Counted from the stretch's first letter, positions 14,022 through 58,673 are shown. The stretch is 64,000 nt of DNA from a candidate division TA06 bacterium (GCA_004376575.1 SOJN01000046.1:48709-112708); one strand, 5' to 3'. Made by a program: numbers and translations. Notes: generated by a model from the sequence alone, not told the origin.

Positions 14022-14041
14022 CCTTTCTGGTATAGAGCATC

Positions 14042-14245: not shown

Positions 14246-14248
14246 TGC

Positions 14249-17808: not shown

Positions 17809-17816
17809 GGTTTGCT

Positions 17817-24988: not shown

Positions 24989-25011
24989 AAAATGAAAGTG
25001 TGGTGAGTAGT

Positions 25012-27448: not shown

Positions 27449-27598
27449 TGCTTCGATTCGCAAATACAGTGACGTTCTATTCAAGGGACATTGCCCGGGG
27501 TTGCTCACTCAGCACTCGTCCTGAGTAAACGAATTCATGAATCGAAGGACTCAACAAGAAGAGTCAGACACTCAGACTGACCAGCGAAAAGGAGAAAG

Positions 27599-32502: not shown

Positions 32503-37632
<5,130 letters not shown>

Positions 37633-37717: not shown

Positions 37718-39094
37718 CTACGCGCTTGCATACTCCTTTGCGTTTATCCCGTACCTTTTTATCTTCTCGTGCAAATTCTGTCTTGCAATCTGAGCCATGC
37801 GCGCTGACTTGGCAACGTTCCCACCGTTCGCTTTGAGAATATCTACTATGTACTCTTTCTCAAAGGTTTCCTTAGCTTTTTTGAAGGGGAACTTGATGGC
37901 TGAGAGTCCTGCCTCAGGAGTCGGTGATGTGATGGATGTGGGGAGGTCGCCCACCTGTATGATGTCGTCAGAGCACAATGTCACCGCATGCTCGATGGCA
38001 TTTTCAAGCTCTCTTACATTTCCCGGCCAATCATGCCTCAAGAACCATTCGACTACTTCGGGAGTAAAACCTCTTACCGTCTTCTTCTGCTCTCTGCAGA
38101 ATTTCTGCAGGAAGTGATCCGCCAGGAGTGGTATGTCTTCTCTTCTCTCTCTCAGGGCAGGGAGAAAGATTCTTACCACATTAAGTCTGTAGAAGAGGTC
38201 CTTCCTGAAGGTTCCATTAGATAGCTCTTTGTTCAGATCAATGTTAGAGGATGCCATTATTCTGACATCAACTGTGATTTCCTTTATGCCACCAACAGGT
38301 ATGAAAGCACTTTCTTCAATGACGCGAAGAAGTTTTACCTGAGTGGAAAGGGGGGCTGTGTTTATTTCGTCCAGGAATATTGTTCCCCCCTCAGCTGCTT
38401 CGAAAAGGCCCTGCTTCGTTCTATCAGCACCCGTGAATGCACCCTTGGTATGCCCGAATAGTTCACTTTCCAGGAGAGTCTCCGGCACCCCACCACAGTT
38501 TATTGCAATGAATCTCTTATTCTTTCTCGGACTGGAGTAGTGTATCGTCTTCGCAACTACTTCCTTTCCTGTTCCACTTTCGCCTTGTATGAGAACTGTG
38601 GTCTTGGTTGGAGCAATCTTCCGTAAGAGTGCGTAAAGATCACGCATCTTCCTGCTTTTCCCAATGATGCGGCTGAAGGAGAACGTGTCCTCGAGCTGTT
38701 TGTGCAGATACCTGTTCTCATCCACCAGACTCTTTCTTTCAATTGCCCTCTCCACGACCAGCTTGACGCTTTCCATACCTATGGGCTTTCTGAGAAAGTC
38801 GTAGGCACCCAGTTTCATCGCCTCTACGGCAGTTTCGACAGTGGCATATCCTGTCAGCATTATGACCGAAGGATCAAACCTGTTTCTTCTTATTTCTTTT
38901 AGTACATCCAGTCCAGTGATGTAGGGCATTTTCAGGTCTAACAGAACAACATCATACTTAACGCGCTCGAGGGATTTGATGGCTGCTCTCCCATCTTCCG
39001 CCTTTGAAATGTGATATCTGTCTTTCAGAATGTCTTCCAGAGCATCTCTTATGCCCGGCTCATCGTCCACTATCAGAACGCTAGCCTTTTGCAT
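37718..39094 (-). CDS. NtrC-family sigma-54-dependent response regulator (REC-AAA+-HTH)
   Basis: [14 protein letters not shown] receiver, [21 protein letters not shown], and a Fis HTH. Start taken at [11 protein letters not shown] (ATG 39092-39094). The track start is 39178. Confidence 0.85.
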
Positions 39095-39177
39095 TACTAC
39101 CCCCCCGGGCCGCCTCAGAAGGTTAGGAACCAGACGCGGGGTTTTTCTGGGGAACCCTGCGAAACCCCTTGGCCGCA

Positions 39178-39378
39178 TCAGCTTGTGAGCGACGGGGCGT
39201 GCTCAACGAGCTTTGCGAAGAATGAAACAAGCCATGCGCAGTTCTTCCCCCCCCAATTGTCTTTTATGTAACTCTCGGTGTAGTCGAGATCCTTTGGGGA
39301 GGCCTGTGCAATTCTGGACACTACGTTGGCGATCTGCTCCAGCTCATACGTAGTGAGGACTGGATATTTCAGATTCAT
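39178..39378 (-). CDS. small protein, paralog A of a triplicated 59-66-aa family
   Basis: MNLKYPVLTTYELEQIANVVSRIAQ...WLVSFFAKLVEHA with a GGGAGGTGA RBS. About 60% identical to paralog B. Confidence 0.5.
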   Translation of the reverse strand: MNLKYPVLTTYELEQIANVVSRIAQASPKDLDYTESYIKDNWGGKNCAWLVSFFAKLVEHAPSLTS

Positions 39379-39717: not shown

Positions 39718-40167
39718 TCACTGAGCATCCCCCATTGACCATTCGTCGCTCAAGAGGACAAGGTCTTTGCGACCGTCCAGAACTAAGGCATAGGCACCCA
39801 TAACATCTCTGCCCAGAAGACTCGGTATTTGCTTCTTATACTTCTCCGGCAACTGATCATGCTTGTTGACCAGCACCTCATCAATATCCTGCTGGTGCTC
39901 ACCGCCCTCAGTTATGAAGGAGAAGGTCAGGTCGTTCAGTTTGTATATCTGTGTAAACCCGCCTATTCCCAACATATCCGCATTCATCTTCTCCATTTGG
40001 GCGAAGTCTATGCCCAGCTTGGCCACGTCTCGCTCACTGATGACCGTTCTTGGCGTTCCCGTATCTATCAAGAATGCAATTCTCCGGGGGTGTCCACCGT
40101 TTCTTCTGAGGACGATAATGTCTAGAAAAGGAGAACCGTCTGAGTTGAAGTAACCTATTATTTTCAA
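39718..40167 (-). CDS. retropepsin-like clan AA aspartic protease
   Basis: Catalytic D-T-G-T in FLIDTGTPRTVIS. About 150 aa. A second glycine-rich flap region is present. The ATGA start overlaps the upstream small gene. Confidence 0.7.
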   Translation of the reverse strand: MKIIGYFNSDGSPFLDIIVLRRNGGHPRRIAFLIDTGTPRTVISERDVAKLGIDFAQMEKMNADMLGIGGFTQIYKLNDLTFSFITEGGEHQQDIDEVLVNKHDQLPEKYKKQIPSLLGRDVMGAYALVLDGRKDLVLLSDEWSMGDAQ

Positions 40168-40436
40168 AGTATCACCGTTGCCTTCGTACTCGTCAAATAT
40201 TCTGTAGAGACAAGTTTAGAAACTCTTGGAAGCCTTCTGTCCACCAGTCTCATCAGCTCTGAAATATCCCGGTGTGAACCGACCACCTTCTTGTTGAATA
40301 CTGCAACAAACTGGTCGGGATAGCGTCGCGCAAGCGCAGAATAATTCTCAGCCAGCCACTTGGGATCGTCTGTGCTCGCTGCCGTCAGCTCATCCAGCAG
40401 AGCCCCGGGAATCTTGGTTGTAGTTGCTTTTGCCAT
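40164..40436 (-). CDS. small DUF5678-like protein translationally coupled to the retropepsin
   Basis: AGGAGG RBS 5 nt upstream. The motif ...YPDQFVAVFNKKVVGSHRDISELMRLV... resembles DUF5678 as recalled. Confidence 0.45.
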   Translation of the reverse strand: MAKATTTKIPGALLDELTAASTDDPKWLAENYSALARRYPDQFVAVFNKKVVGSHRDISELMRLVDRRLPRVSKLVSTEYLTSTKATVIL

Positions 40437-40470
40437 CTCAACCTCCTGCTTTGATTTCTTCCTTGACGCT

Positions 40471-40650
40471 CTAAAGATCTTCAAGCAGCCTGCAAAAGAA
40501 GGTGATGTACAGTTTTTGATTGGAAGCAGAACTTTTTTGTACGATGTAGCGGCGAGTAGATTCTATTTCATCGGGAGTTGCCTCTTTCAGTCGATCAAGG
40601 GTCCACTTAGTGGTTTCCAGTTCATGTATTGTAACCACCGGTTTGGACAT
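40471..40650 (-). CDS. small protein, divergent paralog C of the A/B family
   Basis: MSKPVVTIHELETTKWTLDRLKEATPDEIESTRRYIV...LYITFFCRLLEDL has the same pattern (V.T.HELE ... FF.RL.E) and a GGAGA RBS. Confidence 0.4.
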   Translation of the reverse strand: MSKPVVTIHELETTKWTLDRLKEATPDEIESTRRYIVQKSSASNQKLYITFFCRLLEDL

Positions 40651-40667: not shown

Positions 40668-42422
40668 CTAGATCTCTTGTTTGGACTCGTCCTGCATCGG
40701 GGGTAGCATGACCGTCACAGTTGTGCCTACTCCTGCCGCACTCTCTACCGAGATGCTTCCTCCGTGCTCGTCTACGATCCTTTTTGATATTGCCAGGCCC
40801 AGACCAGTTCCCGTTTCTTTGGTGGTGTAGAACGAGTCGAATATCTTGCCCAGCTCTTCCATCTTTATTCCGCACCCTGTGTCTTTGAAAGATACCAGAA
40901 CTCGTTCATCGCCCAACCTGTCCACACTCGATCCAGTGGAGACTGTCAGGGTTCCCCCCTCGCTCATGGCCTGTGCGGCGTTTGTTATCAGATTCAGAAA
41001 AACCTGCTGTAGTCTGTTTTTGTCTGCAAGTACACGCGGTAGATCGTTCTTCAGCGACCTTTCAAGTACTACGTTGTGGTTCTTGAGGTGGTTTTCTGTC
41101 AACAGGATGGACTCCCCTATAATTTGGGTTATGCTTTGAGGCTTGAACTCTGATCTGGACATGCGAGCAAACTCGAGTATCCCCTGTACTAGCTTTGATA
41201 TTCTTTCCACCTGTTTGTCAATAACATCGATGGAGTTGTATATCGGATCGCGGGGGTCTATCTTGCTCAATAGAATGTCTGTTCTGGCCATTATGGTCAT
41301 CAGGGGATTGTTTATTTCGTGTGCAATGGACCCAGCCAACTCGCCCACCGTGGCAAGCTTCTCAGACTGGAGCAACTGTGGGTAGGCCACAGCCATGGTC
41401 AGTGTGTTTTCCTCCAGCCTTGAGTACTTTTGTTTCAACATGTGATGGGACTGAGCCTTGGAAATAGCCAGTCCTACTCCGTCAGCGAAGGCCCTGAGTA
41501 GTGGCAAGTTATCCTCGCTGAAAGAATCCTCCTTCTTGTTGCTTTCTAGAAGTATGGCCCCAATTTTTCTGTTGTTCCTGCTGATTGGCACACATATGGC
41601 AGATTTGATTCCAGAATGGGAAACTGCGGATTCTGTCTCCTCGACACTGGGAGAGATCAAGAATGGCGATCCACATTCAATGACCCGTTCAGATATGTCA
41701 AAGTCTTTCGTTTGTTCCTCAATCAATTTCTTATAGTAACCATATCCCGCTCTAAGCGTGATGCTCTTGCCGGCTGCGTCAAAAGTCACGATTGCGGCTC
41801 CATCAACGTCTGGTATCAATTCGACCGCTTTCTTAATAACGAGCTCAAACATCTGCTGAGGATCCATGGTAGAGTTGATAGCGTTTGTTACGGATATGAG
41901 GCTTTCTGCCTCTTCGGACTTCTGCTGCATTCTATCGTAGTCGAGTTTTGCAATGAACGCTTCGCCAAACACTGAAATGAACTCCTGAAGCTTGGATCTT
42001 TCGTCGCTTCCGAGAAAGCCTTCCTTGATCCCGAGCACCATCCCTTTCTGCATGTTCGTTTTGCCAACTGGGAACAAGACTACATTGCAGGACTCTGGTA
42101 CCTTTGAACCCTTAGGAAGCAGGCAGTTCAGCTCACCTGCCGTCAGTGAAACGGCCTGGCTGGGTTCTGCAGAAAGCTTGAGAGTTGTCCTTATCCGACC
42201 TGGTTCCAACTTGGCAAGTTCCTTCTTGTGTTCCAGGAAGGGGGGACGGTAGGACTCTGCCATGAGACTGGGTACACCGAGGTTGTCCTTGTCAAAAAAG
42301 AGAAGGGCAGCATCCAGAGGAGGTACGCTACCACTGGTCAGATGTTCGACGATTACGTGAGGAATGCGAAATGTGGTCTTCAGATGTCCCGTCTTACTTT
42401 CTGATGCGGCCACGTGCCCCAC
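40668..42422 (-). CDS. soluble sensor histidine kinase (unknown N-domain - GAF - HisKA - HATPase_c)
   Basis: H-box HEINNPL, N-box NLITNAAQA, G1 box DTGCGI, G2 box GTGLGLAI. No TM segments. Confidence 0.85.
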   Translation of the reverse strand: MGHVAASESKTGHLKTTFRIPHVIVEHLTSGSVPPLDAALLFFDKDNLGVPSLMAESYRPPFLEHKKELAKLEPGRIRTTLKLSAEPSQAVSLTAGELNCLLPKGSKVPESCNVVLFPVGKTNMQKGMVLGIKEGFLGSDERSKLQEFISVFGEAFIAKLDYDRMQQKSEEAESLISVTNAINSTMDPQQMFELVIKKAVELIPDVDGAAIVTFDAAGKSITLRAGYGYYKKLIEEQTKDFDISERVIECGSPFLISPSVEETESAVSHSGIKSAICVPISRNNRKIGAILLESNKKEDSFSEDNLPLLRAFADGVGLAISKAQSHHMLKQKYSRLEENTLTMAVAYPQLLQSEKLATVGELAGSIAHEINNPLMTIMARTDILLSKIDPRDPIYNSIDVIDKQVERISKLVQGILEFARMSRSEFKPQSITQIIGESILLTENHLKNHNVVLERSLKNDLPRVLADKNRLQQVFLNLITNAAQAMSEGGTLTVSTGSSVDRLGDERVLVSFKDTGCGIKMEELGKIFDSFYTTKETGTGLGLAISKRIVDEHGGSISVESAAGVGTTVTVMLPPMQDESKQEI

Positions 42423-42425: not shown

Positions 42426-42848
42426 CTAATTCCTCTCTGCGTTTCTTGCGGCCACTATTTCCCTCTTGGCTTGTGGCGAACACAGGTGTCTTGCAACTAT
42501 CCACCTGATGATTTCGAAGTTTAGCGGTTTTCGCGCATAGAAGACTATACCCAACTTTCTACATGCAATCTCCAGGTCATCTGAATAGTCCGAAGTTGTG
42601 ACAACGATGGGGAATGTAGAATCGAGTTCCCTTATCGTGGAGATAAGCTCTAACCCCCTCATGTCTTTCAGTTGCGTATCAGCAATAAGTATTGACAGAG
42701 CGCTGTTTCTGAATGCGACGAGAAGGTCTGAACCATTCTCAGCAGTAATGACTGAGAACCCCAGTCTTTCAAATGCCCTTCTCAATTTGGTGAGCCACTT
42801 TGAGTCGGCATCTGTGATTCCTATAGTCTTATCCATCGCGTCAACCAT
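42426..42848 (-). CDS. single-domain response regulator receiver (CheY-like)
   Basis: IGITDAD, phospho-acceptor Asp in ILIADTQL, and the conserved T (VVTTS) and K (YARKP). Confidence 0.65.
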   Translation of the reverse strand: MVDAMDKTIGITDADSKWLTKLRRAFERLGFSVITAENGSDLLVAFRNSALSILIADTQLKDMRGLELISTIRELDSTFPIVVTTSDYSDDLEIACRKLGIVFYARKPLNFEIIRWIVARHLCSPQAKREIVAARNAERN

Positions 42849-42883
42849 TTACCACCCTGACTAGGGTGGCACGAAACGTATCA

Positions 42884-42899
42884 TGCAACAATTGTGCCA
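42884..42899 (-). promoter_or_regulatory. sigma-54 (RpoN) promoter, TGGCAC-N5-TTGCA
   Basis: The reverse complement reads ctcTGGCACaattgTTGCAtg, a perfect -24/-12 consensus with correct spacing, about 36 nt upstream of the receiver gene. Confidence 0.55.
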
Positions 42900-43129
42900 G
42901 AGGACGGATCTCTGATGCGGTTTGCTAAAGTTATGATAGATTTGGACTTACGGAGCACACACAGAGCGTCTCGGGGGGGGTGGTTGCAGCTCTGTGTGTC
43001 ACCTTGACACGGAGTCAACCTTCATTTCAGGGAGATACCCAAGGATGGGGACGTTCGGAAGACGGGTCAAAGGTGCCTTGCTTGTGTCAGTCTGGTACTA
43101 TGGGGAAGTACTACGGGGCATTCGTCGGG

Positions 43130-44485
43130 CTATGCTGAGATGCCGTACTTTTTTATCTTTCTGTAAATGGTCTTTCTGCCCACGCCGAGCATGTCAGCAG
43201 CCCTGCCCTTGTTTCCTCCGCACTCACTCAGGGCCTGTTCTATGAGCTGCCTCTCCATCTCTCCAATAGTAGGCATGGCACCAGGCTTGGAGAGCCTCGT
43301 GTTGGATCTGCGTTGCAGAAGCTTTGATGGAAGGTTTTGTGGCATCAGGACCTCGTCACAGTTGAGGGCGAAGGCTCTTTCCACGACATTTTCCAGTTCT
43401 CGGACATTGCCCGGCCAATCGTAGTATGCGAATGTTTCCATGCAGGCGGGAGCTACAGACTTGACCCTTCTGTTGTATTTTTCGTTAAAAATCTTGATGA
43501 AATGGTGCACCAGTATGGGTATGTCGCCTTTTCTTTCGCGCAGGGGAGGTATCTTTATGTGTACAACACTCAGTCTGTAGTAGAGGTCATTTCTCAGGGC
43601 CTTTTGTGCCAGCGCTTCGTCAACGTCGGCGTTGGTCGCGGCGATCAGCCTCACATCTGTGGGAATAGTCTGGGTACTTCCTACTGGCCTGATCTCTTGG
43701 TCCTGCAATACGCGTAGAAGCTTCACCTGGAGGAAACCGGGCATCTCACCAATTTCGTCCAAGAACAAGGTTCCACTGTCGGCAGCCCTGAAGAGGCCGA
43801 CGTTATCGCTTATTGCTCCGGTGAAAGATCCTTTCTTGTGACCAAACAGTTCACTCTCCAGAAGGTGGTGGGGGATTGCACCGCAGTTGACCGGTATGAA
43901 CGCCTTTTGCGCTCTCTTGCTGTTGAAGTGAATTGCTCTGGCCACCAGTTCCTTGCCTGTTCCACTCTCACCTTCAATAAAAATAGGACTGTCGTTTGCG
44001 GATATTCTGTGGATTATTTCGTTTATTTCACGCATCTTTGGGGATATGCTCACCAGGACGCCGAACTCCTTCTGTTCATCGAGACGTTTCTTGAGGAATG
44101 TATTCTCCTCCTTCAAGCTCCTTTTTTCCATTATGTTGGTGATCACGTGATTTATTTCCTCCATGCGTGTTGGCTTGGTCAGATAGTCAAAGGCTCCCAG
44201 CTTCAGGGCTGAAACTGCAGAGCTCACAGTTGCAAAGGCGGTTAGCATCACAGCCTCGATACTGTCATCTATGCTTCTTATTGATCTCAGTAGCTCAATC
44301 CCGTCCATCTTCGGCATCTTCAGGTCAATTATGGCAATGTCGTACTGGGAATTTCGGATCTTCTCGAGTGCTTCAGGGCCATCGGCCGCAGTTTCCACCT
44401 TGTGTCCATATGGGGTCAATCCGTCCCTCAGAGCGTCTCTCACATCCTCTTCATCGTCGACTATAAGTACCCTTGCGCTCCCCAT
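43130..44485 (-). CDS. NtrC-family sigma-54-dependent response regulator
   Basis: VLIVDDEEDVRDAL receiver, [21 protein letters not shown], and a C-terminal HTH. Confidence 0.85.
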   Translation of the reverse strand: MGSARVLIVDDEEDVRDALRDGLTPYGHKVETAADGPEALEKIRNSQYDIAIIDLKMPKMDGIELLRSIRSIDDSIEAVMLTAFATVSSAVSALKLGAFDYLTKPTRMEEINHVITNIMEKRSLKEENTFLKKRLDEQKEFGVLVSISPKMREINEIIHRISANDSPIFIEGESGTGKELVARAIHFNSKRAQKAFIPVNCGAIPHHLLESELFGHKKGSFTGAISDNVGLFRAADSGTLFLDEIGEMPGFLQVKLLRVLQDQEIRPVGSTQTIPTDVRLIAATNADVDEALAQKALRNDLYYRLSVVHIKIPPLRERKGDIPILVHHFIKIFNEKYNRRVKSVAPACMETFAYYDWPGNVRELENVVERAFALNCDEVLMPQNLPSKLLQRRSNTRLSKPGAMPTIGEMERQLIEQALSECGGNKGRAADMLGVGRKTIYRKIKKYGISA

Positions 44486-44732
44486 TTAGACCCTTTCGGA
44501 CAGACTGGCCCGCCCTTTAAGATTGCGCCGGCAGGCTCATTTCAGAAGAATTGGCCCAGTTTGGCTTTCCCTCCGGCCAGTCAAGGGTAGAATGACTTAT
44601 AGCGGAAAGGCGGGTGTGTGTCAAGGGAAATCTTGGTTCTTGGGTCACTTTTTGGGACACAGGTCACAATTGTCTCGGTTGGGGCCAAAACGGCCTTCCG
44701 TCGTATACTGCATACTGCACGTGAATTTGGTC

Positions 44733-44761
44733 TTGACAACACCGTGGTATTTCCCTATAGT
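44733..44761 (+). promoter_or_regulatory. sigma-70-type promoter (TTGACA-17-TATAGT)
   Basis: Consensus boxes about 75 nt upstream of the sigma54 activator ATG at 44837. Confidence 0.4.
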
Positions 44762-44836
44762 TATCGGTGGGTAGGGCAGGGACCGGGGTGTGCACGCAGC
44801 GTTCGTAATCTTCAGTGCAGGACTGGAGCCGACATT

Positions 44837-45820
44837 ATGGAAGGTGCAGCCCACCCATTTGAGTTTTCCGGGCTGATCAGTAAAGACGGCAAGATGCGGG
44901 CCGTCTTTAACCTGATTGAGAAGGTTGCCTCCACTAACTCGCCAGTACTGGTGCTGGGGGAGACCGGAAGCGGCAAGGAACTTGTGGCTAGGGCCATACA
45001 TGAGAGGAGCCTCAGAGCGGTCGCTCCTTTCATCGCCATAAACTGCGCGGTGCTGTCCGAAACTCTCCTTGAGAGTGAACTCTTCGGGCACGAAAGGGGT
45101 GCGTACACAGGTGCAGTATCCAGAAAACATGGGCTGTTCGAAGTCGCAGATAAGGGAACTATTTTTCTGGATGAGATTGGGGACATGCCTCAAAAGGTTC
45201 AAGCGAAACTCCTCAGGGCTCTTGAAAGCAAGTCGTTCCGAAGGGTGGGAGGGACCAGAGATGTGAAGGTTGATGTGAGGTTGCTTTCCGCATCCGCGAT
45301 GGACCTGGCAGTAGCAATCGACAATCGTGTTTTCAGGAAAGATCTTTATTATCGACTAAGCACTGTCGTAATAGAAATACCACCTCTACGGGACAGAAGG
45401 GATGACATACCCGTGTTGGTTGAGTTCTTTCTCAAGAGGCTGGAAAGGGCGGCGGGCGGAAGGAGAGTGCGCATCACAGGTGCGGCTGTGGATGCTTGTT
45501 GCACCTTTCACTGGCCTGGTAATGTGAGGGAGCTGGAGCATGTGATAGAAAGGTCTTACGTACTCTCCGAGGGAGATGTGATAGATATTCTTGATCTGCC
45601 CGAAAGGTTAAGAGAGATCAGCAAAGCACCATCCGCCGACGCACTTGTTCCGCTCGAGGAAATAGAGAGGCGCTACATAGCCAGGGTCCTGAAGGAAACC
45701 GGTGGGAATAGGACGAGGGCGGCCCGGATTCTGGGAATCGACAGGAAGACTCTCTACAGAAAGGTGAGAATGGGGCAGATTAACCCAACTGGCTCTCCGC
45801 AGGGGCAAAAAACCACATAG
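44837..45820 (+). CDS. sigma-54 activator lacking a regulatory domain (PspF/HrpS-like AAA+ + HTH)
   Basis: [15 protein letters not shown], the GAFTGA motif in its variant form GAYTGA, and a C-terminal Fis-type HTH. The start chosen is [10 protein letters not shown]. The track N-extension from 44618 is probably non-coding. Confidence 0.75.
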
Positions 45821-45902
45821 TGCCTTCCTACCTCTCCTTTGCTTCAATTCATAAGTTACCGTCCTACAAAAGGTTAGTGCAGCACTCCCACCTTCTGATC
45901 GT

Positions 45903-45918
45903 TGGCATGTTTTTTGCT
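45903..45918 (+). promoter_or_regulatory. sigma-54 promoter TGGCAT-N5-TTGCT
   Basis: ttGGcatgttttttGCt has correct GG-N10-GC spacing, about 135 nt upstream of receiver paralog 1. Confidence 0.45.
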
Positions 45919-46053
45919 CAGTCTTAGTAGTGACACGGAAAACATGCAGTCTGAACCGGGGTCTGCGACATACTGTGGCATCTTTGCCCATTGTTATTTG
46001 AGTTTTAACCCGAGTCATTGTGCGACCCTGGTCAGTGCGTTGAGAGAAAGGCA

Positions 46054-46431
46054 ATGGCAAGAGTACTGATAGTTGAACAGGACGTCCTTTTTGGGAAGAT
46101 GCTAAGAGACCTGACTTCTGCCCAGGGGATAGAACCCGATTTGTGTCAAGGACTCGGAGAAGCGATTCTTAAGCTGCGGGAACACCACTACCAAGCTCTG
46201 GTTGTCGACATAGATCAGGAGAGTCTTGATCCTGCCGACGTGATTGGCGTCTTGAAGGCAGTCTCTCCCGGGGTGTCAGTTATTGCGATCACGGATGAGA
46301 ATCGGCTGGAAATGGAGAAACACGTCAGGGAACAAGGAATTTTCTATTACCTTGTGAAGCCGGTTGAGGAAAGAGAATACGCTGAAGCCGTCAATAGGGC
46401 TCTTCAATATTCGGATTCCTTCGCAGTTTGA
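46054..46431 (+). CDS. single-domain receiver protein, paralog 1
   Basis: MARVLIVEQD, Asp in ALVVDIDQ, T in AITDE, K in YYLVKP. 125 aa. About 50% identical to 49487..49864. Confidence 0.65.
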   Translation: MARVLIVEQDVLFGKMLRDLTSAQGIEPDLCQGLGEAILKLREHHYQALVVDIDQESLDPADVIGVLKAVSPGVSVIAITDENRLEMEKHVREQGIFYYLVKPVEEREYAEAVNRALQYSDSFAV

Positions 46432-46513
46432 TACTATCTTGCAGAGCAAAAGGCCAACATATGCCGTTTGACATTGGCTGTTAGTGCTACTAAAGTATCT
46501 GTAAAGCTAGAGG

Positions 46514-47220
46514 TTGGCGATGTCGGAGTCGTCCAAATCAATCTATCTGATTGGCTTTTTCTTTTTCGTTACTGCTGCTGCTGCACAGGAATCAGAGCCC
46601 TACTGGAAACTGGGCAATGTTCTTCCTGATTTTGGCCGCGACTCCTATGGTGAAGACGCTTACGAAAGAAGCAGTGCATTCAGAACCGACATAAACATTG
46701 TTAGGGCCGGTCTCGACTCAGATTGGCTCTACATAGAGATAGACTGCGAGGATTCCTTCTCTGGCAGCAGTGATGACCATGCAATAGAGTTGGACAACGA
46801 CCCTCTAGACGAATCAGATAGGGGTGACTGGCTCATATACGTTGGTGGGTGTGATGCTTTGGTCGATTCGGTCTGGGTCAAGGGCAAGAATGTGGGGAAG
46901 TTGTGCGGGCGCAGGCAAGAATTTATGGATTTGACCTGATGCAGAACTTCCCGAACCCGTTTGTAAACGTGACTTCAATGCGGTTCTCAGTTCCGGGTAG
47001 ATCATCTTCAAAAGAGAAAGTGAAAACATCTATCGACATTTTTGACGTGTCGGGTCGGTTGATCAGGAGACTCATACGGGAAGATATGTTCCCCGGCGTG
47101 TATCAGGTGGTCTGGGACGGAAAGACAACGGAAGCAAAAGGCGCTCCGTCAGCGATCTATTTGTGCAGATTGAAGATTGGAGAAAGGAGCGGAACAAGAA
47201 AGGTTCTTCTGCTAAGATAA
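46514..47220 (+). pseudogene. secreted T9SS-CTD protein split by a -1 frameshift near 46890-46925
   Basis: The frame-2 ORF (46514..46939) encodes a signal peptide and an N-domain. The T9SS CTD (FDLMQNFPNPF...IDIFDVSGRLIRRL...YLCRL) continues in frame 1 up to 47220. Confidence 0.5.
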
Positions 47221-47355
47221 AGACAGTCTTGAGCGGATTGGTCGGGACCGGCCTCGGTCTATGTTCATTTTCCCGCCTTAGGGAATGGCCAATCCGCTTT
47301 TGGTTTTAGGCTCACCCTAATCGACGAAATTAACTCCAAATTACAGAGCACAAAC

Positions 47356-47440
47356 GAAAAGTACGAGGTAGGAATTCCAAAGTACAAGGCCGCGCAAAGG
47401 CGATACTTCGTACTTCGCTTCTTGTACTTTGTACTTCTTC
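47356..47440. repeat. array of AAGTAC(A/G)A(A/G)G motifs in inverted orientation (imperfect palindrome)
   Basis: aaagtacgagg and aaagtacaagg on the + strand, then cttgtactttgtacttc / cgtacttcg on the minus strand. The same motif recurs at 54490-54547. Confidence 0.5.
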
Positions 47441-47564
47441 CCAAAGTGTGTGGGCGCCGTTTCCGCGCCCGTTGAATCTCATCAGTCGCTGTTTTCACTT
47501 ACTCTTGCTTGAGAAGTGAAGATGGCCCAAGTACATGACATGGTGAATGGACGACTCTTTTGAC

Positions 47565-47593
47565 TTGACAGTGCACATCAGGAAAGGTATCAT
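47565..47593 (+). promoter_or_regulatory. sigma-70-type promoter (TTGACA-17-TATCAT)
   Basis: Consensus boxes 24 nt upstream of the TTG start, which has a GGAGG RBS. Confidence 0.4.
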
Positions 47594-47616
47594 ATTGCGA
47601 CTTCTGGAGGTACGCG

Positions 47617-49251
47617 TTGCCAAAAAAAGAGGTATACACTTTCTTAGTAGTCTTCTGGTGCATACTAGTGCTCACCTATGGAACATCTTCAGGTGTGAGC
47701 GTCAACTGGGCTGGGGTATGCGGCTCAAGCAAATACCTGCAGGATGAGAATGACCGTAATCTCAAGGGTGTGTGGTTTGATTTCAGCTCGTGCGGACACA
47801 CAGTGTACGACCTTGTTTACCTGGTCTGGGACCAGGATATGGACGGCATTGAAGAGTTTGACTGTGATAGGCAGTTGGACGGAGACAGCATAGCAGACAG
47901 TATTTTCATAGGCCAGGGCGTTTTCTGCAACACTCCACCATGTTCTTCTGGTGGATTTTCCACAAACTTTACCTGGGGCGGTGAAGGCGACCTAGACACT
48001 TTTTACGTAATAGCGCTGAATGATACAACGCGTGCGTGGGCTACCTACTACGGAACGAGCGCTCAGCACAGCCCTTCTCTCTGGGAGGTTGACAACACTC
48101 AGGAGGCCGCAACGATAATCTGTAATGCAAATAGCACTTGGAAAACGGATACCGAGTTTCCAGACTCAGCGACCTTCACCGGGACCTCGATTGCGGGTAA
48201 TGCAGAACCAGGTGATAGGAAAGTTGGTATGGCTAAGATAGCAGCAGTAATAGGTACGGAAACTGCTATTTGGAATTCGATTAAGGTGGACAATGGGCCC
48301 AGCGCTGGATGCACCAATGATGACGAGGACATAGATTCAGTCAAGATATATAGGGAGGTTTCTGGAGCTGGCTTCGATCCCAGTGATGATCTGCTCATAG
48401 GTGAGGCGGAGTGGGGGCCGGGCCCTCCAGATGGGGGAACAGCCACAGTCACTTTCTTCGACCCGGAAACGTTGACCACCACCTCTGTAGATTACTACAT
48501 AGCTTTTGATATTGAAGCGAGCGCAGTCCGGAGCCACTGTGCCGCTGCCTGCATTCAGAATGACACATACTTTGGAATAAGTGCACCCGACTGCATTGAT
48601 GGGAACTTTCCATTCTGCTCTGGTGACGCGGGCCTTCCAGTGGAGATATCGAGATTCGAGGCTTTCGCAGGCGACAGGATGGTCACTCTTGAATGGACAA
48701 CCCAGACCGAGATCGATAATAGAGGCTTTCATATTTACAGGGCTTTGTCCGAAGATGGTGTCTTTTCCAGAGTGAATCAGGAGATGATCCCCGGGGCTGG
48801 AAATTCATCTTTGCCCATTGATTATGAGTACATAGATAGGGGCTTGAATAATGGGACTGAATATTTCTACAAATTGGTAAGTGTCACCTACGGCAATGAC
48901 TTGTCCTACTATGAAAATGTGGTCAGTGCGATGCCAAGGAAAGAACACTGGGGGAGGTCGGCAGACCAGACAGGCCTCTACGGATGCAGTCCCAACCCCT
49001 TCATCAGCTCTGCTCAGATTTCCTTCCAGTTGAGAGATGAGGCGGTCTCGAGCAGCGTGAGTCTTCAGGTTTACGACGTTTCCGGGAGGCTGGTCAGGAC
49101 CCTTGCGCAGGGGCATTTCGATTCTGGAGCCCACATGGTCCCGTGGGACGGGCTCGATGAGGGAGGCAAGCCTGTTCCCTCCGCTCTTTACTTCTGCCGG
49201 CTGAGGACCGACGAGGTTATTTCCATCATGAAGGTCGTAAAGGTAGATTAG
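47617..49251 (+). CDS. secreted protein with an N-terminal 'VNW / WDxDxDGI' domain and a T9SS C-terminal sorting domain
   Basis: Signal peptide. VSVNWAGV...LVWDQDMDGIEEFD is similar to the 53548 and 57220 proteins. The C-terminus LQVYDVSGRLVRTL...PSALYFCRLRT...KVVKVD is the CTD. Confidence 0.75.
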   Translation: MPKKEVYTFLVVFWCILVLTYGTSSGVSVNWAGVCGSSKYLQDENDRNLKGVWFDFSSCGHTVYDLVYLVWDQDMDGIEEFDCDRQLDGDSIADSIFIGQGVFCNTPPCSSGGFSTNFTWGGEGDLDTFYVIALNDTTRAWATYYGTSAQHSPSLWEVDNTQEAATIICNANSTWKTDTEFPDSATFTGTSIAGNAEPGDRKVGMAKIAAVIGTETAIWNSIKVDNGPSAGCTNDDEDIDSVKIYREVSGAGFDPSDDLLIGEAEWGPGPPDGGTATVTFFDPETLTTTSVDYYIAFDIEASAVRSHCAAACIQNDTYFGISAPDCIDGNFPFCSGDAGLPVEISRFEAFAGDRMVTLEWTTQTEIDNRGFHIYRALSEDGVFSRVNQEMIPGAGNSSLPIDYEYIDRGLNNGTEYFYKLVSVTYGNDLSYYENVVSAMPRKEHWGRSADQTGLYGCSPNPFISSAQISFQLRDEAVSSSVSLQVYDVSGRLVRTLAQGHFDSGAHMVPWDGLDEGGKPVPSALYFCRLRTDEVISIMKVVKVD

Positions 49252-49284
49252 GACTAAAGAAAGATCATATCGGCTGTTGGCCAA

Positions 49285-49316
49285 ACGCGCGGGTACATGC
49301 TCGCGCGTAATCTTTT
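49285..49316 (+). terminator. rho-independent terminator (acgcgcg-N10-cgcgcgt + tctttt)
   Basis: GC-rich 7-bp stem followed by a T-tract, 34 nt after the stop. Confidence 0.45.
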
Positions 49317-49433
49317 CGTTACGGGTGCCCCCCAATCATGACAGCGACCGCAACACGTTGGGCCGCTTTTCGAGTTTTGTAAGTTCTTTATGACACGTAT
49401 GTTACATGTCCATTACTTGTGTCCTGCAAAAGA

Positions 49434-49448
49434 GGCACGGAAATTGCA
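49434..49448 (+). promoter_or_regulatory. sigma-54 promoter GGCACG-N4-TTGCA
   Basis: agaGGCACGgaaaTTGCAgc is a perfect -24/-12 match, 39 nt upstream of the GTG start. Confidence 0.55.
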
Positions 49449-49486
49449 GCGCCTTGTTTGGCGCAGGTCAAACAAGGAGGGAAGCC

Positions 49487-49864
49487 GTGAGCGCTGTGTT
49501 GATTGTTGAGCATGACCCTGCCTACCGCAGGAAGTTTTTCGATCTTGCCTCTGAGTACACCGAGGAGACAGATTTCTGTACGCGAACCTGGCAGGCCATA
49601 GAAATGGTCCAGACCAAGAACTACTCATCCGTGGTGGTTGATCTGGACCAGGAGGGGATAGATCCCGTTGATGCGATCGAGGTGATCAAGGGGATCTCTC
49701 CGGGCACCGCAATCATAGCAGTGACCGAAAGGAACCGCCTGGAACTGGAGAAGACCGTAAGGAAAGAAGGTATCTTTTACTACATGGTCAAGCCTCTGGA
49801 CGATGATGAGTTCAGAGAAGCAATAGAGCGAGCAGTAGATTGCTACGGCGAGGCCTGGGAGTAG
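49487..49864 (+). CDS. single-domain receiver protein, paralog 2
   Basis: GTG start 6 nt after AGGAGG. VLIVEHD, VVVDLDQ, AVTE, YYMVKP. 125 aa. Confidence 0.65.
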   Translation: MSAVLIVEHDPAYRRKFFDLASEYTEETDFCTRTWQAIEMVQTKNYSSVVVDLDQEGIDPVDAIEVIKGISPGTAIIAVTERNRLELEKTVRKEGIFYYMVKPLDDDEFREAIERAVDCYGEAWE

Positions 49865-49880
49865 ACAGGCCTCGTTTTTT
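49850..49880 (+). terminator. rho-independent terminator (gaggcctg-N8-caggcctc + TTTTTT)
   Basis: Perfect 8-bp GC stem overlapping the stop codon, followed by a T6 run. Confidence 0.6.
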
Positions 49881-50512
49881 GCGATAAGCTTCGCATTTCG
49901 CCAGAGTTTCAAGCCATCTCCTGATAGAGGCTTCCCTCTGTGATCAAGGGTCTCAACTAGTTAGGAGAGGCATGGACTCTGGCACTCTTTTTGCTCAACA
50001 TTTCGTTGGGAAAGGTTCATAGGTGACGATATGGCAAACACAAACAACAAAGCTTCAAAGAATGCACCGTTTCTTTTCATGGTTGATGATGGCGATGCAT
50101 GTGCCAGCGGGCTGGTGGCTTACGGTAGGCCTCTAAGGACGTCTCTCGGTTCTCAGGAAGTTGACTCCGGGGTTGCATCCTGTGCCAGTTCCATGATGAA
50201 GTGGATGGCCATATACTCGGAAGATGGGAGCGAGCCTGAACAACATGCCCTTGTTTGGCACACAGCCTGCTTCGCTTTCTAGAGCGCTTTTCCCGCCAGT
50301 TTAACAGGGTGCTATCGTTTACCCCTATGCGGTACTGCAGAAGTAGATTCTGTCGATTGACAGAGCATCTCGTTCATCAAGGATGGGACAATTGCTAACA
50401 ACATTTTGTTACATGTGTCATTCAACTCTGGCCCAATCCGGAGCGGCAAAATGTTACAGAGCGCGAACAGAAGCTACAGAGGGCTTTTTCAGGTATTCTT
50501 TGTGGTCACATA

Positions 50513-50528
50513 TGGCACACTTATTGAT
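50513..50528 (+). promoter_or_regulatory. sigma-54-like promoter TGGCAC-N5-TTGAT (non-canonical -12)
   Basis: atatGGCACacttaTTGATac lies 70 nt upstream of ATG 50599. The same variant occurs at 54943. Confidence 0.4.
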
Positions 50529-50598
50529 ACTAAATAGATCGAGAAAGAAATCGTAATTGTGCAAACTGATAAAAAGCAGACAACATGAGGAGACAAGC

Positions 50599-53520
50599 AT
50601 GAATAAAAGTACAATAGTATTCAGCAACTGGAAATGTAGGAGATTGAAATTCCTGGCCAGCCTGGCTGCAGCAGGTTGCGTCTTGCTTTTCGCAAACCGG
50701 TGTGCAGGCGAGGTTGCCTGGTGGGACACAGACCATGACGAGAGAGCTCAGCTTATTGTTCAAAATCAATCCAGCAATACGCTTTACGCAGGGTATCCTG
50801 TGGCTGAGAGTCTGGACACCGGAACTCTCGTTTCTGCTGGCGACATGCTTGCCTCTGGAAACGATCTGAGGATTATTTACTACAATGGCGCGTCCAACGT
50901 GGAATTGGACAGGCGAATCATTTACATGAATTCCGACACCACGTTGGTCTGGTTCGCTGTTCAGCAGGATATAGCGCCTTCAGCAGCTGACAGCAACTAC
51001 TGGATGTACTACAACCACCCTTCAGCTTCAGCACCAAATGTTGACATTGACAGCATATTCGTGCCACCAAAAGATGGTTACAGTGCTGCACTCTACTTTT
51101 TCGAATCAGGCTCCGGTACGACCCTTGAAGACACTTCCGGGAATGACAATGATGGGACTGTTAATAACATGGACAACACCAACTGGGTCGAGGGAAAGCA
51201 CTCTCTTGGCCTTCACTTTGACGGGTCTAGTGAATATATCTCCGTTCCTGACGACGCCATCCTTGACATAGAAGACGAGATAACCTTGGAGACCTGGTTC
51301 AAACTCGATAATGCCTTCGGCCCCGATTCTGAAAACTATGACATGTCGCTCCTAGAAAAAGGGCCTTACGGCCTTAGGCTCGACCACGTTACAGGAGAAC
51401 TTGTATTCAGTCTTTCCGGTTGGACTGTGGAGTACGACTCTCCTCAGAGTGAGATCTATTCCTTGGCCCTCTACAACGGGAAGCTTTTCGCTGGTACTGG
51501 AGAGAGTGGCATAGTCCATACCTTTGACGGAGCCACGTGGTCTAGCGAGGACATCACTGATGAAAAGGATGTGATGTGCCTTTGCGTTTACGGAGGCAAG
51601 CTTTATGCTGGCACAGGTGAAGCGCAGGGTATTGGAGGCGGGAAGATTTATGTCTACGATGGCATAAGCTGGGTCCTGGAGTATGATACGCCAAGCAAAA
51701 ATATCCGCTCGATGGCCGTATACAGAGATACCCTTTTCGCAGGGAGCGGGAATTCGGGGTTGGTCTATAAGTTTGACGGGACTTCCTGGTCAAGTCAGGA
51801 TATTACAAACGATTGGGACATTTTCTCTCTACGAGTATACAACAACAAACTGTATGCTGGTACGGGGAACCCTTCGGCACAAGGCAAGGGATATTTCTAC
51901 TCGTACGATGGAACTTGGTCTCTTGAGTACGACAGCCCGTCAAAGAACATTTATTCGATGGCCGTATACACAGATACCCTTTTCGCGACGAGCGGGGATG
52001 AGGGGTTGGTGTATAAGTTTGACGGGACTTCCTGGTCGAGTGAAGATATTACATCACAAAAGGATGTGCTCTCCATATTTGTATATTCAGGCAAGCTCTA
52101 TGCAGGTACCGGGACCTTTGGATCTCCTATAGGGGCCGGGCTAATATACGAGTATGACGGCTCCTCATGGTCTCTTTCCTATAACACCCCTCAAAAAGAT
52201 GTATTCAGTCTTGGCGATTACAATGGCCTTCTCTATCTAGGCACTGGCAATTCTGGAATAATCTACACCTACCCTGATGAGGCGGTCTTGGCGTCTGCGC
52301 AGGGTTTATGGAACGCCGCCCAGTTCTACCACGTTGCAGGAACCTTTGATGGTTCTGACATGAAGATTTTTGTGGATGGGATTTTGGATACATCAAACTC
52401 GGTAAGTGTGATCATAGACAAGGACACTTCAGCACTGATGATTGGCGGAGGAATCGACACCACCTTTTTCAGAGGTTCTCTAGATGGTATGGGAGTTTCA
52501 GGTGTGGCGAGGACCGATTTCTGGTACGCCAAAATATCGCCAGAACCCACTGTGGCACTGGCTGGCACGGGGACATATACCTCCATGGGAGATATCAACA
52601 GGAGTACTTCGGACGGAAACATCGCCATCTATTGGCGGAGTGTCAGCGGAAGGACCTATGACGTTTTTTACTGCGATACTCTCCAGGGAACCTACACGGA
52701 TGTAGCAGATGTGGTTGCCAGTGGTGACACCACGAGCTGGACAGATGATGGTTCTGCTACGGGTACGCATCCTGATTCTGTTGTGGCCAGGTTCTACAGG
52801 GTTGAGTGCCAGACAGGAGCACTGAGCAGAAATACCACGGGCAAGATGAAGAGATCGATTGTCTCCGGGATGCAGCTCGTCAGCAACCCATTTATTCCAT
52901 ACAACTCATCGATTCAGAGTGTGCTTGGCGGACAGTTGACAGGAGCTGCGGATGAAGGGTATGCAGACAGGGTCTGGAAGTACGATACTGACATAGACGA
53001 CTACGTCTTTGCATGGCTGGTTGCTGGAGTTGGCGCGCCTTACGATGGAAAGTGGTGGAGTTCTCAGGACTTTGAGGAATCAACAATGGATCTGGGTCCT
53101 GACTGCGGTTTCTGGATACAATCGAGAAATGCAGCCCAGGAGATGACTTTTGTTGGTGAGGTCTCGGATACTTCTGACAGGGTGATATCGATTGTCTCAG
53201 GGATGCAGTTGTTTGGGAGCCCCTATCCGGATACAGTTCTCCTGAAGAACTCAGACCTGATTGAAGATGGTGCGACAGGTGCTACGACTGAACTGAATGC
53301 CGATAGGATTTGGTGGTGGGATCCTGATTCAACTAAGTACGACTATGCGTGGTTGGTGGACGATACGGGAGGCCCGAACGATAGTCTATGGTGGGATTCA
53401 GACCCCTGGGGTGAGACTTCAATCACTCTGAGGCCCGGCGAGGGTTACTGGTATCAGACAAGAGGTAACCCATTTACCTGGAGTTATTCGAAGCCCTATG
53501 ATGCGCCACCAAATCCGTAA
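50599..53520 (+). CDS. large secreted repeat protein (about 45-aa YAGTG/beta-propeller-like repeats, a LamG-like region, and a C-terminal tandem about-120-aa domain) with no T9SS CTD
   Basis: ATG 50599 has a GAGGAG RBS and a signal peptide. Repeats of the form LYAGTG...G.VY.FDG.SWS...DIT. The C-terminal 250 aa (VARFYRVE...GKWWSSQDF...WWDSDPWG...YWYQTRG) is shared with 55168..57201. Confidence 0.75.
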   Translation: MNKSTIVFSNWKCRRLKFLASLAAAGCVLLFANRCAGEVAWWDTDHDERAQLIVQNQSSNTLYAGYPVAESLDTGTLVSAGDMLASGNDLRIIYYNGASNVELDRRIIYMNSDTTLVWFAVQQDIAPSAADSNYWMYYNHPSASAPNVDIDSIFVPPKDGYSAALYFFESGSGTTLEDTSGNDNDGTVNNMDNTNWVEGKHSLGLHFDGSSEYISVPDDAILDIEDEITLETWFKLDNAFGPDSENYDMSLLEKGPYGLRLDHVTGELVFSLSGWTVEYDSPQSEIYSLALYNGKLFAGTGESGIVHTFDGATWSSEDITDEKDVMCLCVYGGKLYAGTGEAQGIGGGKIYVYDGISWVLEYDTPSKNIRSMAVYRDTLFAGSGNSGLVYKFDGTSWSSQDITNDWDIFSLRVYNNKLYAGTGNPSAQGKGYFYSYDGTWSLEYDSPSKNIYSMAVYTDTLFATSGDEGLVYKFDGTSWSSEDITSQKDVLSIFVYSGKLYAGTGTFGSPIGAGLIYEYDGSSWSLSYNTPQKDVFSLGDYNGLLYLGTGNSGIIYTYPDEAVLASAQGLWNAAQFYHVAGTFDGSDMKIFVDGILDTSNSVSVIIDKDTSALMIGGGIDTTFFRGSLDGMGVSGVARTDFWYAKISPEPTVALAGTGTYTSMGDINRSTSDGNIAIYWRSVSGRTYDVFYCDTLQGTYTDVADVVASGDTTSWTDDGSATGTHPDSVVARFYRVECQTGALSRNTTGKMKRSIVSGMQLVSNPFIPYNSSIQSVLGGQLTGAADEGYADRVWKYDTDIDDYVFAWLVAGVGAPYDGKWWSSQDFEESTMDLGPDCGFWIQSRNAAQEMTFVGEVSDTSDRVISIVSGMQLFGSPYPDTVLLKNSDLIEDGATGATTELNADRIWWWDPDSTKYDYAWLVDDTGGPNDSLWWDSDPWGETSITLRPGEGYWYQTRGNPFTWSYSKPYDAPPNP

Positions 53521-54942: not shown

Positions 54943-54958
54943 TGGCACAGTTATTGAT
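54943..54958 (+). promoter_or_regulatory. sigma-54-like promoter TGGCAC-N5-TTGAT
   Basis: tcTGGCACagttaTTGATgc lies 210 nt upstream of ATG 55168. Confidence 0.4.
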
Positions 54959-55167
54959 GCTTAATGCATACGTGGGGTGCGGTGACTCGGTGGGAAATAG
55001 GCAATTGAACGGAAGGTTGGTTGTTACTAAGTGACAATAGCCGAGAGACTTACTAGGTCAAATCCTCTCGCACTGACTTATCTCTACTGCTATGAGAGCC
55101 TGGAATATGTTGTTATATTTGTCAGGAACAACGCAATGTGTTGTTACATGCCGTAGGAGGGGTTCTC

Positions 55168-58622: not shown

Positions 58623-58673
58623 AAACCACTGGTGGAATCGGGCTTAATTAAGTTTGTGAGGAGGGGTCTGCGT

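Follow-up and report, generated by a model that had tools for sequence, protein, structure and literature searches.

Single-domain receivers behind sigma-54 promoters are paired with sigma-54 activators in a candidate division TA06 genome

Introduction

Why should a bacterium place receiver proteins that lack an output domain behind promoters of the sigma-54 type? This question is raised by a 64,000-nt stretch of DNA from a candidate division TA06 bacterium (GCA_004376575.1, SOJN01000046.1:48709-112708), the whole of which is called the window below. It contains three receiver genes, named here R1, R2 and R3, each lying behind a -24/-12 element. A preliminary description of this locus, drawn from the sequence alone, had suggested that the receivers are phosphate sinks or adaptor proteins whose level is set by sigma-54 activators, and had not recognised the arrangement. 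We found that this description overlooked the main regularity of the locus: R1 and R2 lie directly downstream of genes encoding sigma-54 activators, that is, bacterial enhancer-binding proteins (bEBPs or EBPs), and the activator that precedes R2 has no regulatory domain. The observations consist of the promoters and their conservation, the domain architectures, an atypical phosphorylation pocket and a conserved pairing of EBP and receiver genes. On this basis we propose, at what we judge to be about an even chance, that the receivers are dosage-controlled feedback modulators that act on EBPs in trans, in effect forming with them a split NtrC-type regulator.

Results

Three receiver genes lie behind conserved sigma-54 promoters

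R1, R2 and R3 encode receiver-only proteins. Pfam recognised Response_reg (PF00072) with scores of 56.7, 47.0 and 48.9 bits, respectively, against a gathering cut-off of 30.2, and assigned no output domain; the NCBI protein identical to R1 carries the name 'response regulator'. R2 and R3 are indeed paralogues of 125 amino acids (aa), as already described, with 47% identity over 117 aa. The GTG start codon of R3 is preceded by a good AAGGAGG ribosome-binding site. The gene is followed by an intrinsic terminator at 49847..49881(+), with an 11-bp G+C-rich stem and a U6 tract (dG -24.5 kcal/mol, z -5.4), which agrees with its description as monocistronic and strongly terminated; the terminator analysis of the locus found no terminator behind R2. 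R1 stands alone as a protein and not as a transcript: it opens an operon of two genes, the other of which encodes a GAF-HisKA-HATPase histidine kinase, with 3 nt between them (Table 1).

Both strands of the 64-kb window (128 kb in all) were scanned with a sigma-54 position weight matrix (PWM) that is our own approximation from the published consensus and has a maximum of 20.1 bits. The five best matches scored 19.4 (R2), 18.4 (an open reading frame, ORF, of 83 aa), 17.6 (R1), 17.2 (an ORF of 86 aa) and 15.0 bits (R3). All five are intergenic, in a window of which about 9% is non-coding, and each is oriented toward a gene start. The strings quoted for the three receivers in the preliminary description are thus present, at ranks 3, 1 and 5 for R1, R2 and R3. 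Matches of at least 15 bits numbered 4 against 0.5 expected, the R3 site, whose score prints as 15.0, falling just below this cut-off. Compared with TGGCAC-N5-TTGCW, the three receiver sites carry 0, 1 and 1 mismatches and keep the GG and GC dinucleotides 10 nt apart; when one mismatch was allowed, this consensus was matched 12 times in the window, against 2.3 expected and never more than 5 in shuffled sequences. The best matches inside coding regions reached 14.0-14.7 bits, so that no coding match equals those of R1 and R2, and the margin of the R3 site is small. Score does not separate the latter from background, and we call it a promoter because of its position and conservation, not its score alone.

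The predicted transcription starts lie near 42873 (R1), 45929 (R2) and 49459 (R3). R1 and R3 can be said to stand directly behind their promoters, with distances of 36 and 39 nt to the start codon; R2, at 136 nt, cannot, and its predicted 5' leader measures about 125 nt. A search of Rfam at gathering score returned two tRNAs alone and nothing within this leader.

Sequence comparison with related loci, which are numbered here with the prefix L, argues that these sites are maintained. In alignments, the 16-mers of the receiver sites formed invariant blocks at a constant distance from the start codon, flanked by spacers that had diverged. A syntenic contig with about 82% aa identity (L001, GCA_975955435.1) keeps the entire layout and all three sites. 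In addition, the R3 site is kept in L002 and L003, forming an invariant block in four loci with diverged flanks, and also in L045; the R2 site is kept in L045, L046 and L106; and the R1 site is kept in L105 and L106, whose R1 orthologues show 55% and 65% aa identity. Orthologous receivers in these loci carry -24/-12 promoters as well, and the sites persist down to 55% aa identity for R1 and 36% for the R2 family. Of the 21 PWM matches of at least 14 bits found in some 80 kb of related TA06-type loci, 18 stood directly before a receiver or an EBP-receiver operon. Overall, the comparisons indicate that the -24/-12 promoters of the receivers are very probably real. It is also very probable that synthesis of the receivers is set by sigma-54 activators, as the preliminary description had suggested. 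A hairpin over the R1 ribosome-binding site (CCACCCT/AGGGTGG) was dropped as a candidate element, given that L001 does not keep it.

R1 and R2 directly follow activator genes

The four sigma-54 activators reported near the receivers were all recovered (Table 1). The gene of EBP1, an NtrC-type protein, immediately precedes the R1 promoter and shares its orientation, and the order EBP1, site, R1 and kinase is found again in L001, L105 and L106. R2 directly follows the gene of EBP2. R3 lies 3.6 kb downstream of EBP2, past R2 and cargo genes. Among the other activators, the protein of 1709 aa has an unusual architecture that joins signalling to transcription in a single polypeptide.

EBP2 consists of a sigma-54 AAA+ domain (Sigma54_activat, 223.7 bits) and HTH_8 (55.8 bits). 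Counted from the ATG at 44837, the AAA+ domain starts at residue 14, which corresponds to residue 87 of a 400-aa mechanical ORF that opens with a GTG at 44618. The shorter form is consistent with homology among orthologues, which starts at residue 2 counted from this ATG, with the 327-aa annotation of the identical NCBI protein, and with a sigma-70-type promoter inside the mechanical ORF. Just 13 residues thus precede the AAA+ domain, leaving EBP2 without an N-terminal regulatory domain. Its clade comprises EBPs of 314-333 aa with 55-100% identity; the next relatives, below about 55%, all carry a receiver domain (REC). Some 30 related clusters, with lengths of 301-333 aa, likewise lack a regulatory domain. 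Judged by its domains, EBP2 is of the group 4 bEBP type, like PspF and HrpR/S.

Loci with comparable gene order were collected by searches with a six-sequence receiver alignment and with EBP2, followed by a look-up of the gene context. Among TA06-type genomes and metagenomes, 12 further occurrences of the R2/R3 family had flanks that could be read; 10 of them follow a domain-less activator, and each receiver or EBP-receiver pair is preceded by a sigma-54 site. A domain-less EBP followed by an R2-family receiver occurs in the window, L001, L004, L045, L046, L100 and L106; in L099, L101, L102 and L103 the EBP is followed by a receiver relative of 122-133 aa. The order EBP, site and receiver that characterises the window is repeated in L045, L046 and L106. 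In L004 (TA06), a 320-aa domain-less EBP with 62% identity to EBP2 is followed by the site TGGCACAGTTTTTGCT (19.1 bits), a 122-aa receiver with 36-41% identity, and BNR and FlgD_ig cargo. In L100 the site (17.1 bits) comes first, then a 324-aa EBP and, 47 nt further, a 124-aa receiver. A second, paralogous module, called type B (L099, L101-L103 and one JGI contig without DNA), likewise begins with the site (14.4-19.0 bits), followed by a domain-less EBP of 319-321 aa and a degenerate receiver of 122-133 aa that has no Pfam match but matches R2, R3 and the receivers of L004 and L100 at E values of 1e-14 to 1e-21. Type B modules always adjoin two pilin-like (N_methyl) genes and lie opposite moeA, which hints that they control a type IV pilus-like apparatus or one resembling type II secretion.

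The pairing is not universal. The receiver of L047 (43% identity to R3) is placed after ftsZ, behind a separate site of 18.2 bits, and lacks an adjacent EBP, and the soil locus L104 encodes a domain-less EBP, 52% identical to EBP2, without a receiver neighbour. Rokubacteria, which made up the majority of the loci retrieved with the six-sequence receiver alignment, served as a negative control: there a canonical EBP with REC is followed by a canonical receiver with a D-D-D pocket, and no sigma-54 site lies between them. The wiring may extend into Fibrobacterota, since in L029 (Chitinispirillaceae) a fusion of kinase, REC and EBP is followed by a site (18.4 bits), a receiver with an E-P-D pocket, a hybrid kinase and a GGDEF protein.

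Two receivers from Thermodesulfobacteriota and Deferrisomatales, at 6001..6402 of L016 and 5340..5741 of L017, share the motif GIFYYLVKP. They keep a D-D-D pocket, are aspartate-less through a Gly at the D57 position, and have an EBP gene nearby on the opposite strand.

The receivers have an atypical phosphorylation pocket

Pocket residues were assigned by aligning the receivers to Aquifex NtrC1 with a hidden Markov model (HMM) and to CheY with MAFFT. Both placed equivalents of CheY D57, T87 and K109, together with the aromatic switch residue, in R1, R2 and R3. At the position of the CheY pair D12-D13 we found D-A in R1, E-Q in R2 and E-H in R3, with an Asp at position 14 in each; the assignment is less secure for R1, for which another MAFFT alignment gives T-D at the acidic pair. 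Relatives have G, K, A or P in place of D13. T87 is replaced by V or I in the type B receivers of L099 and L101-L103, and K109 is replaced by G in L047 and in the protein P0007. In CheY, the Mg2+ on which phosphoryl transfer depends is co-ordinated by D13, and a D13K variant is phosphorylation-independent. Because the D13 equivalent is missing, ordinary phosphorylation of R1-R3 appears doubtful from their sequences.

Very few sequences belong to the R2/R3 subfamily. When 1.84 billion representatives were searched exhaustively with HMMER, 3 matches reached E <=1e-30, and 4 clusters at 50% identity were obtained before generic receivers started. Such a narrow distribution suggests a lineage-specific partner and not a general signalling part. 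When the family profile was compared with solved structures, the best five matches were receiver domains of NtrC1 and NtrC4 (1zy2, 1ny5, 1zit, 4l4u and 3dzd).

The receiver promoters share an upstream TAAGT box

A TAAGT box lies 51-53 nt upstream of the -24 element at each receiver promoter (Table 1). The pattern TAAGT-N44-52-GGCAY-N5-TTGC had exactly three matches in the window, namely the receiver promoters, against 0.01 expected. R3 orthologues show GTAAA, GTAAG or GTAAGC at the position of the box, which is absent from the promoters of the 83-aa ORF, the 86-aa ORF and the cargo genes. This distribution suggests that one common DNA-binding factor may act at the three receiver promoters. A palindrome upstream of the R1 promoter could be an activator-binding site. 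A repeat search of 42800..50600 found no long upstream element in common besides the promoters themselves.

Table 1. Positions of receivers, activators and candidate regulatory elements in the window and of type B modules in related loci
Feature	Position	Strand	Description
R1	42426..42848	-	140 aa; pocket D-A-D / D57 / T87 / K109; Pfam 56.7 bits
R2	46054..46431	+	125 aa; pocket E-Q-D / D57 / T87 / K109
R3	49487..49864	+	125 aa; pocket E-H-D / D57 / T87 / K109; GTG start
Predicted sigma-54 promoter of R1-kinase operon	42884..42899	-	TGGCACAATTGTTGCA; ends 36 nt before ATG; PWM 17.6, rank 3
Predicted sigma-54 promoter of R2	45903..45918	+	TGGCATGTTTTTTGCT; ends 136 nt before ATG; PWM 19.4, rank 1
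Predicted sigma-54 promoter of R3	49433..49448	+	AGGCACGGAAATTGCA; ends 39 nt before GTG; PWM 15.0, rank 5
TAAGT box of R1	42946..42950	-	51 nt upstream of -24; also in L001 (-52) and L105
TAAGT box of R2	45852..45856	+	51 nt upstream of -24; at -51 in L001, L045 and L046
TAAGT box of R3	49380..49384	+	53 nt upstream of -24
Palindrome GTGTCACCTTGACAC	42996..43010	.	97 nt upstream of R1 -24; partly conserved in L001
EBP1	43130..44485	-	NtrC-type; REC, sigma-54 AAA+ and HTH_8; 451 aa; GSFTGA loop (Pfam, motif)
Histidine kinase	40668..42422	-	GAF-HisKA-HATPase (Pfam); 3-nt gap to R1
EBP2	44837..45820	+	327 aa; sigma-54 AAA+ (GAYTGA loop) and HTH_8 only
Sigma-70-type promoter of EBP2	44733..44761	+	TTGACA-17-TATAGT; 11/12 matches; inside mechanical ORF
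Third activator	37718..39178	-	NtrC-type; REC, AAA+ and HTH; 486 aa
Fourth activator	32503..37632	-	1709 aa; Ser/Thr kinase, AAA_16 (STAND-like), TPR, GAF, sigma-54 AAA+ and HTH_8
Type B module, L099	4001..5354		
Type B module, L101	3001..4354		
Type B module, L102	3001..4353		
Type B module, L103	349..1710		

A proposed model in which the receivers modulate activators in trans

The conserved adjacency of R1 and R2 to activator genes, together with the lack of a regulatory domain in EBP2, argues for a partnership between activator and receiver. In our model receivers would be produced only while an EBP is active. Within a first module, the GAF kinase would phosphorylate EBP1, which would then induce the R1-kinase operon, giving an autoregulated two-component system with an extra receiver; the target of R1 could be the kinase or the receiver dimer of EBP1. 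In a second module, EBP2 would be made from its sigma-70-type promoter and, because it has no regulatory domain, constitutive activity would be expected, as in PspF, HrpR/S and NtrC1 without its receiver. Either EBP2 or a neighbouring EBP would drive R2 and R3, and R2, probably also R3, would bind the AAA+ domain of EBP2 in trans, with an effect set by abundance and not by phosphorylation. The feedback would more likely be negative, by analogy with PspA-PspF, HrpV-HrpS and FleN-FleQ, and could also be positive. The assignment of EBPs to promoters, the binding of receivers to EBPs and the direction of the feedback are all inferred. Beyond the window, it is conceivable, and we say so tentatively, that the whole clade of domain-less EBPs in TA06 and its metagenomic relatives obtains its regulatory module in trans, in the form of a phosphorylation-impaired receiver made from sigma-54 promoters and tuned by dosage.

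If this model is correct, the receivers would form a class of group 4 bEBP trans-regulators not described before, in which a receiver has been repurposed as a stoichiometric anti-activator or co-activator. It would also be a new way to gate the sigma-54 AAA+ motor, with an NtrC-type regulator split into separately expressed modules. The locus gives concrete and testable access to the way genes are regulated in a phylum without cultured members. Promoter, activator and receiver are all of small size and could be reassembled in E. coli, a host with a sigma-54 of its own. Under a more ordinary reading, the locus would still be a well-conserved case of autoregulated sigma-54 signalling.

Several points weigh against modulation of EBPs by the receivers. 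The proposed contact between the two is deduced from gene adjacency, and AlphaFold2 prediction of R3 from a six-sequence alignment was unusable, with a mean pLDDT (predicted local distance difference test) of 58 and values <50 beyond residue 88. Repression of the NtrC1 type works through a covalent linker helix, and a receiver encoded as a protein of its own has none. D57, T87 and K109 are intact in R1-R3, and Asp14 may stand in for D13, so that phosphorylation might be possible after all. R3 and L047 have no adjacent EBP; the TAAGT motif was found post hoc; and rpoN is not among the genes of the window. Furthermore, none of the ten receivers checked among the closest ones belonged to an AAA-HTH-REC fusion of the 'Rosetta stone' kind, all ten being multi-REC, GGDEF or hybrid-kinase proteins. 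Finally, R2 and R3 are about 28-29% identical to the REC domains of related EBPs, as any NtrC-type receiver would be; given this value, recent fission of one NtrC-type gene was not demonstrated and was set aside.

Three other explanations have to be compared with modulation of the EBPs. That the -24/-12 matches arose by chance or are non-functional, the receivers being transcribed from other promoters, is very improbable and already largely refuted. The approximate nature of the PWM and the coding-region scores near that of R3 speak for it, and they are opposed by the intergenic position and gene-ward orientation of the five best matches, by the 12 consensus matches where 2.3 were expected, by the preservation of the sites as conserved blocks in the diverged spacers of up to four loci and in orthologues of 36-55% identity, and by the four adjacent EBP genes. 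A role as phosphate sinks or phosphorelay shuttles, the earlier suggestion, would suit R1, which is co-transcribed with a histidine kinase and adjoins a REC-containing EBP: kinase-phosphorylated receivers would drain or reroute phosphoryl groups from EBP1 and the third activator (37718..39178) and thereby damp the response. Sigma-54 induction of such a competitor would yield negative feedback, and the retention of D57, T87, K109 and the aromatic switch residue is compatible with it. However, the D13 equivalent is A, Q or H in R1-R3 and is absent across the family, whose members also lose T87 or K109, and the R2 family travels with an activator, not with a kinase. Its partners are domain-less EBPs that are unable to receive phosphate, and we found no histidine kinase beside the EBP-receiver pairs of L004, L099, L100 and L101-L103. 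We consider the sink explanation unlikely.

A further explanation holds that the receivers are output adaptors of a sigma-54 regulon that bind an envelope machine such as type IX secretion (T9SS) and gliding, type IV pili or exopolysaccharide (EPS) export, in the manner of CheY, PilG/PilH and DivK, their adjacency to activator genes reflecting co-regulation only. The neighbourhood fits this: the receivers of the window have genes for T9SS-type cargo and PorU/PorV-like proteins as well as an EPS cluster as neighbours, type B pairs adjoin pilin-like genes, L004 adjoins a prepilin peptidase, and neither R3 nor L047 is next to an EBP. Moreover, sigma-54 is broadly tied to the cell exterior (PMC3162934). 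Nevertheless, across contexts that differ between cargo, pilins and MoeA, the sole constant neighbour is the domain-less EBP, and the cargo genes beside R2 and R3 have sigma-70-type promoters of their own. An adaptor function thus appears to us rather improbable, and trans-acting modulation of the EBPs is the reading that we carry into the comparison with known systems.

Comparison with known regulatory systems

Group 4 EBPs are described as controlled by 'protein binding in trans', with PspF and HrpR/S given as the only examples (PMC7175178). EBPs without a regulatory domain are rare, and the controlling partners of PspF and HrpR/S are unrelated to receivers. PspF-PspA of E. coli and HrpR/S-HrpV of P. 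syringae resemble the pair described here in that an activator made of AAA+ and HTH without a regulatory domain has its controller encoded nearby. The controller gene of these systems is itself sigma-54-dependent, which creates feedback. The candidate partner differs in having a CheY-like receiver fold; in type B and L100, moreover, the sigma-54 site precedes the EBP, so that the activator would also be autoregulated. R1-R3 had no match to PspA/IM30 or HrpV, Response_reg being their sole Pfam match, and the likeness to these controllers is one of functional analogy. In NtrC1 and NtrC4 of A. aeolicus and in DctD, built from the same receiver, AAA+ and HTH parts, the receivers control assembly of the AAA+ ring in cis. 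By contrast, the receiver here is a separate gene that follows the AAA+-HTH gene, lacks a linker helix and D13, and has a sigma-54 promoter of its own.

The first module is similar to autoregulated sigma-54 two-component operons, in which an NtrC-type regulator activates its own signalling genes. glnAp2-ntrBC, fleSR and flrBC are operons of this kind, and autoregulation by ZraR (zraP/zraSR) is mentioned in PMC12316311. Compared with operons of the zraSR type, the induced operon here consists of receiver and kinase, does not include the EBP gene, and brings in an additional receiver of atypical sequence. Single-domain receivers are also known next to sigma-54 activators: VemR of Xanthomonas citri, encoded in the rpoN2-vemR-fleQ operon, is reported to bind sigma-54 (RpoN2) and to act positively (PMC6637908). 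Like the receivers described here, VemR is a stand-alone CheY-like protein that is encoded beside a sigma-54 activator gene, and it affects sigma-54 transcription through protein contact, as the receivers would in our model; it differs in being co-transcribed with rpoN2 and fleQ and not from its own -24/-12 promoter, and we liken it to R1-R3 by description, not by sequence.

Phosphate-sink receivers such as CheY1 of S. meliloti, pseudo-receivers and aspartate-less receivers likewise consist of a single domain without an output. A sink depends on a complete acidic pocket and on a kinase that also serves an output regulator, whereas D13 is missing here and most pairs have no kinase nearby. Pseudo-receivers have lost switch residues, as some members of the R2/R3 family have; aspartate-less receivers differ from R1-R3, which keep D57.

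The occurrence of CheY-like receivers behind predicted sigma-54 promoters is not new. According to a recent survey (PLoS One 2025, PMC12316311), COG0784 receivers are over-represented behind predicted sigma-54 promoters in Planctomycetia, Desulfobacteria and Gammaproteobacteria, and the arrangement in the window, not recognised in the preliminary description, follows a general trend already reported. That survey works at the level of COGs, and its accessible text makes no mention of domain-less EBPs, the atypical pocket or TA06. In the literature available to us we found no description of receivers paired with domain-less EBPs, of a [D/E]-x-D pocket, or of EBP anti-activators that are receivers or pseudo-receivers, which does not prove that there is none.

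Genomic neighbourhood and further sigma-54-type sites

Genes interspersed with and downstream of the receivers encode proteins with C-terminal FlgD_ig or Por_Secre_tail domains, which agrees with their earlier description as T9SS-type cargo. The cargo genes starting at 46514 and 47617 have strong sigma-70-type promoters of their own and, because of this, do not obviously belong to the same regulon as the receivers. In this stretch, the sequence marks the receivers, and not the cargo, as sigma-54 targets. Two overlapping ORFs, 46514..46939 and 46903..47220, the second with FlgD_ig and Por_Secre_tail, occupy a place where L001 has a single gene for a 541-aa FlgD_ig protein, and probably represent a truncated or frameshifted cargo gene. 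The 400-nt gap between this remnant and the next cargo gene contains an inverted repeat (47367..47442), possibly a terminator or a repeat element, whose 22-nt arms are 82% complementary and 32 nt apart. Toward the end of the window (58632..64000), the gene of a 1625-aa Peptidase_C25 protein precedes that of a UPF0164-family protein, which reaches past the window end, a pair that resembles PorU (the sortase) and PorV of type IX secretion.

On the other side, genes for a DUF5678 protein and a retropepsin-like aspartyl protease (39718..40484(-)) are found between the kinase and the next activator, and DUF5678 likewise stands behind the kinase in L001 (1..133). An EPS cluster (8886..31515) directly flanks the sigma-54 island. 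It includes Wza, a Wzc-like tyrosine kinase, a CpsB phosphatase, many GT4 glycosyltransferases, Wzy, a radical-SAM/SPASM enzyme and a sugar transferase, and is followed by a ROK kinase and an Omp85/POTRA protein.

The window also contains sigma-54-type sites in front of genes other than the receivers. The second-ranked match, TGGCACTCTTTTTGCT at 49980..49995(+), is perfect (PWM 18.4) and lies 36 nt before the 83-aa ORF (50031..50282), which has no Pfam match; both site and ORF are kept in L003 (871..886 and 922..1173). At 31854..31869(-), the site TGGCATATTTCTTGCT precedes an 86-aa ORF with a basic tail (ATG 31780, stop 31520), also without a Pfam match, which is masked in the mechanical ORF list, where the start is a TTG at 31882. 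An inverted repeat, CGCAAC-N5-GTTGCG, at 32036..32052, 167 nt upstream of this site, is a candidate enhancer. Finally, two variant sites, TGGCACA[CG]TTATTGAT, at 50513..50528 and 54943..54958, have GA instead of GC at -12 and precede the large secreted-protein genes 50557..53520 (Laminin_G_3) and 55138..57201 (FG-GAP). These 2 matches compare with 0.06 expected, and the same variant is kept in L003 at 1360..1375; the sites may serve as sigma-54 promoters of a weak or specialised kind, or may be recognised by a different sigma factor.

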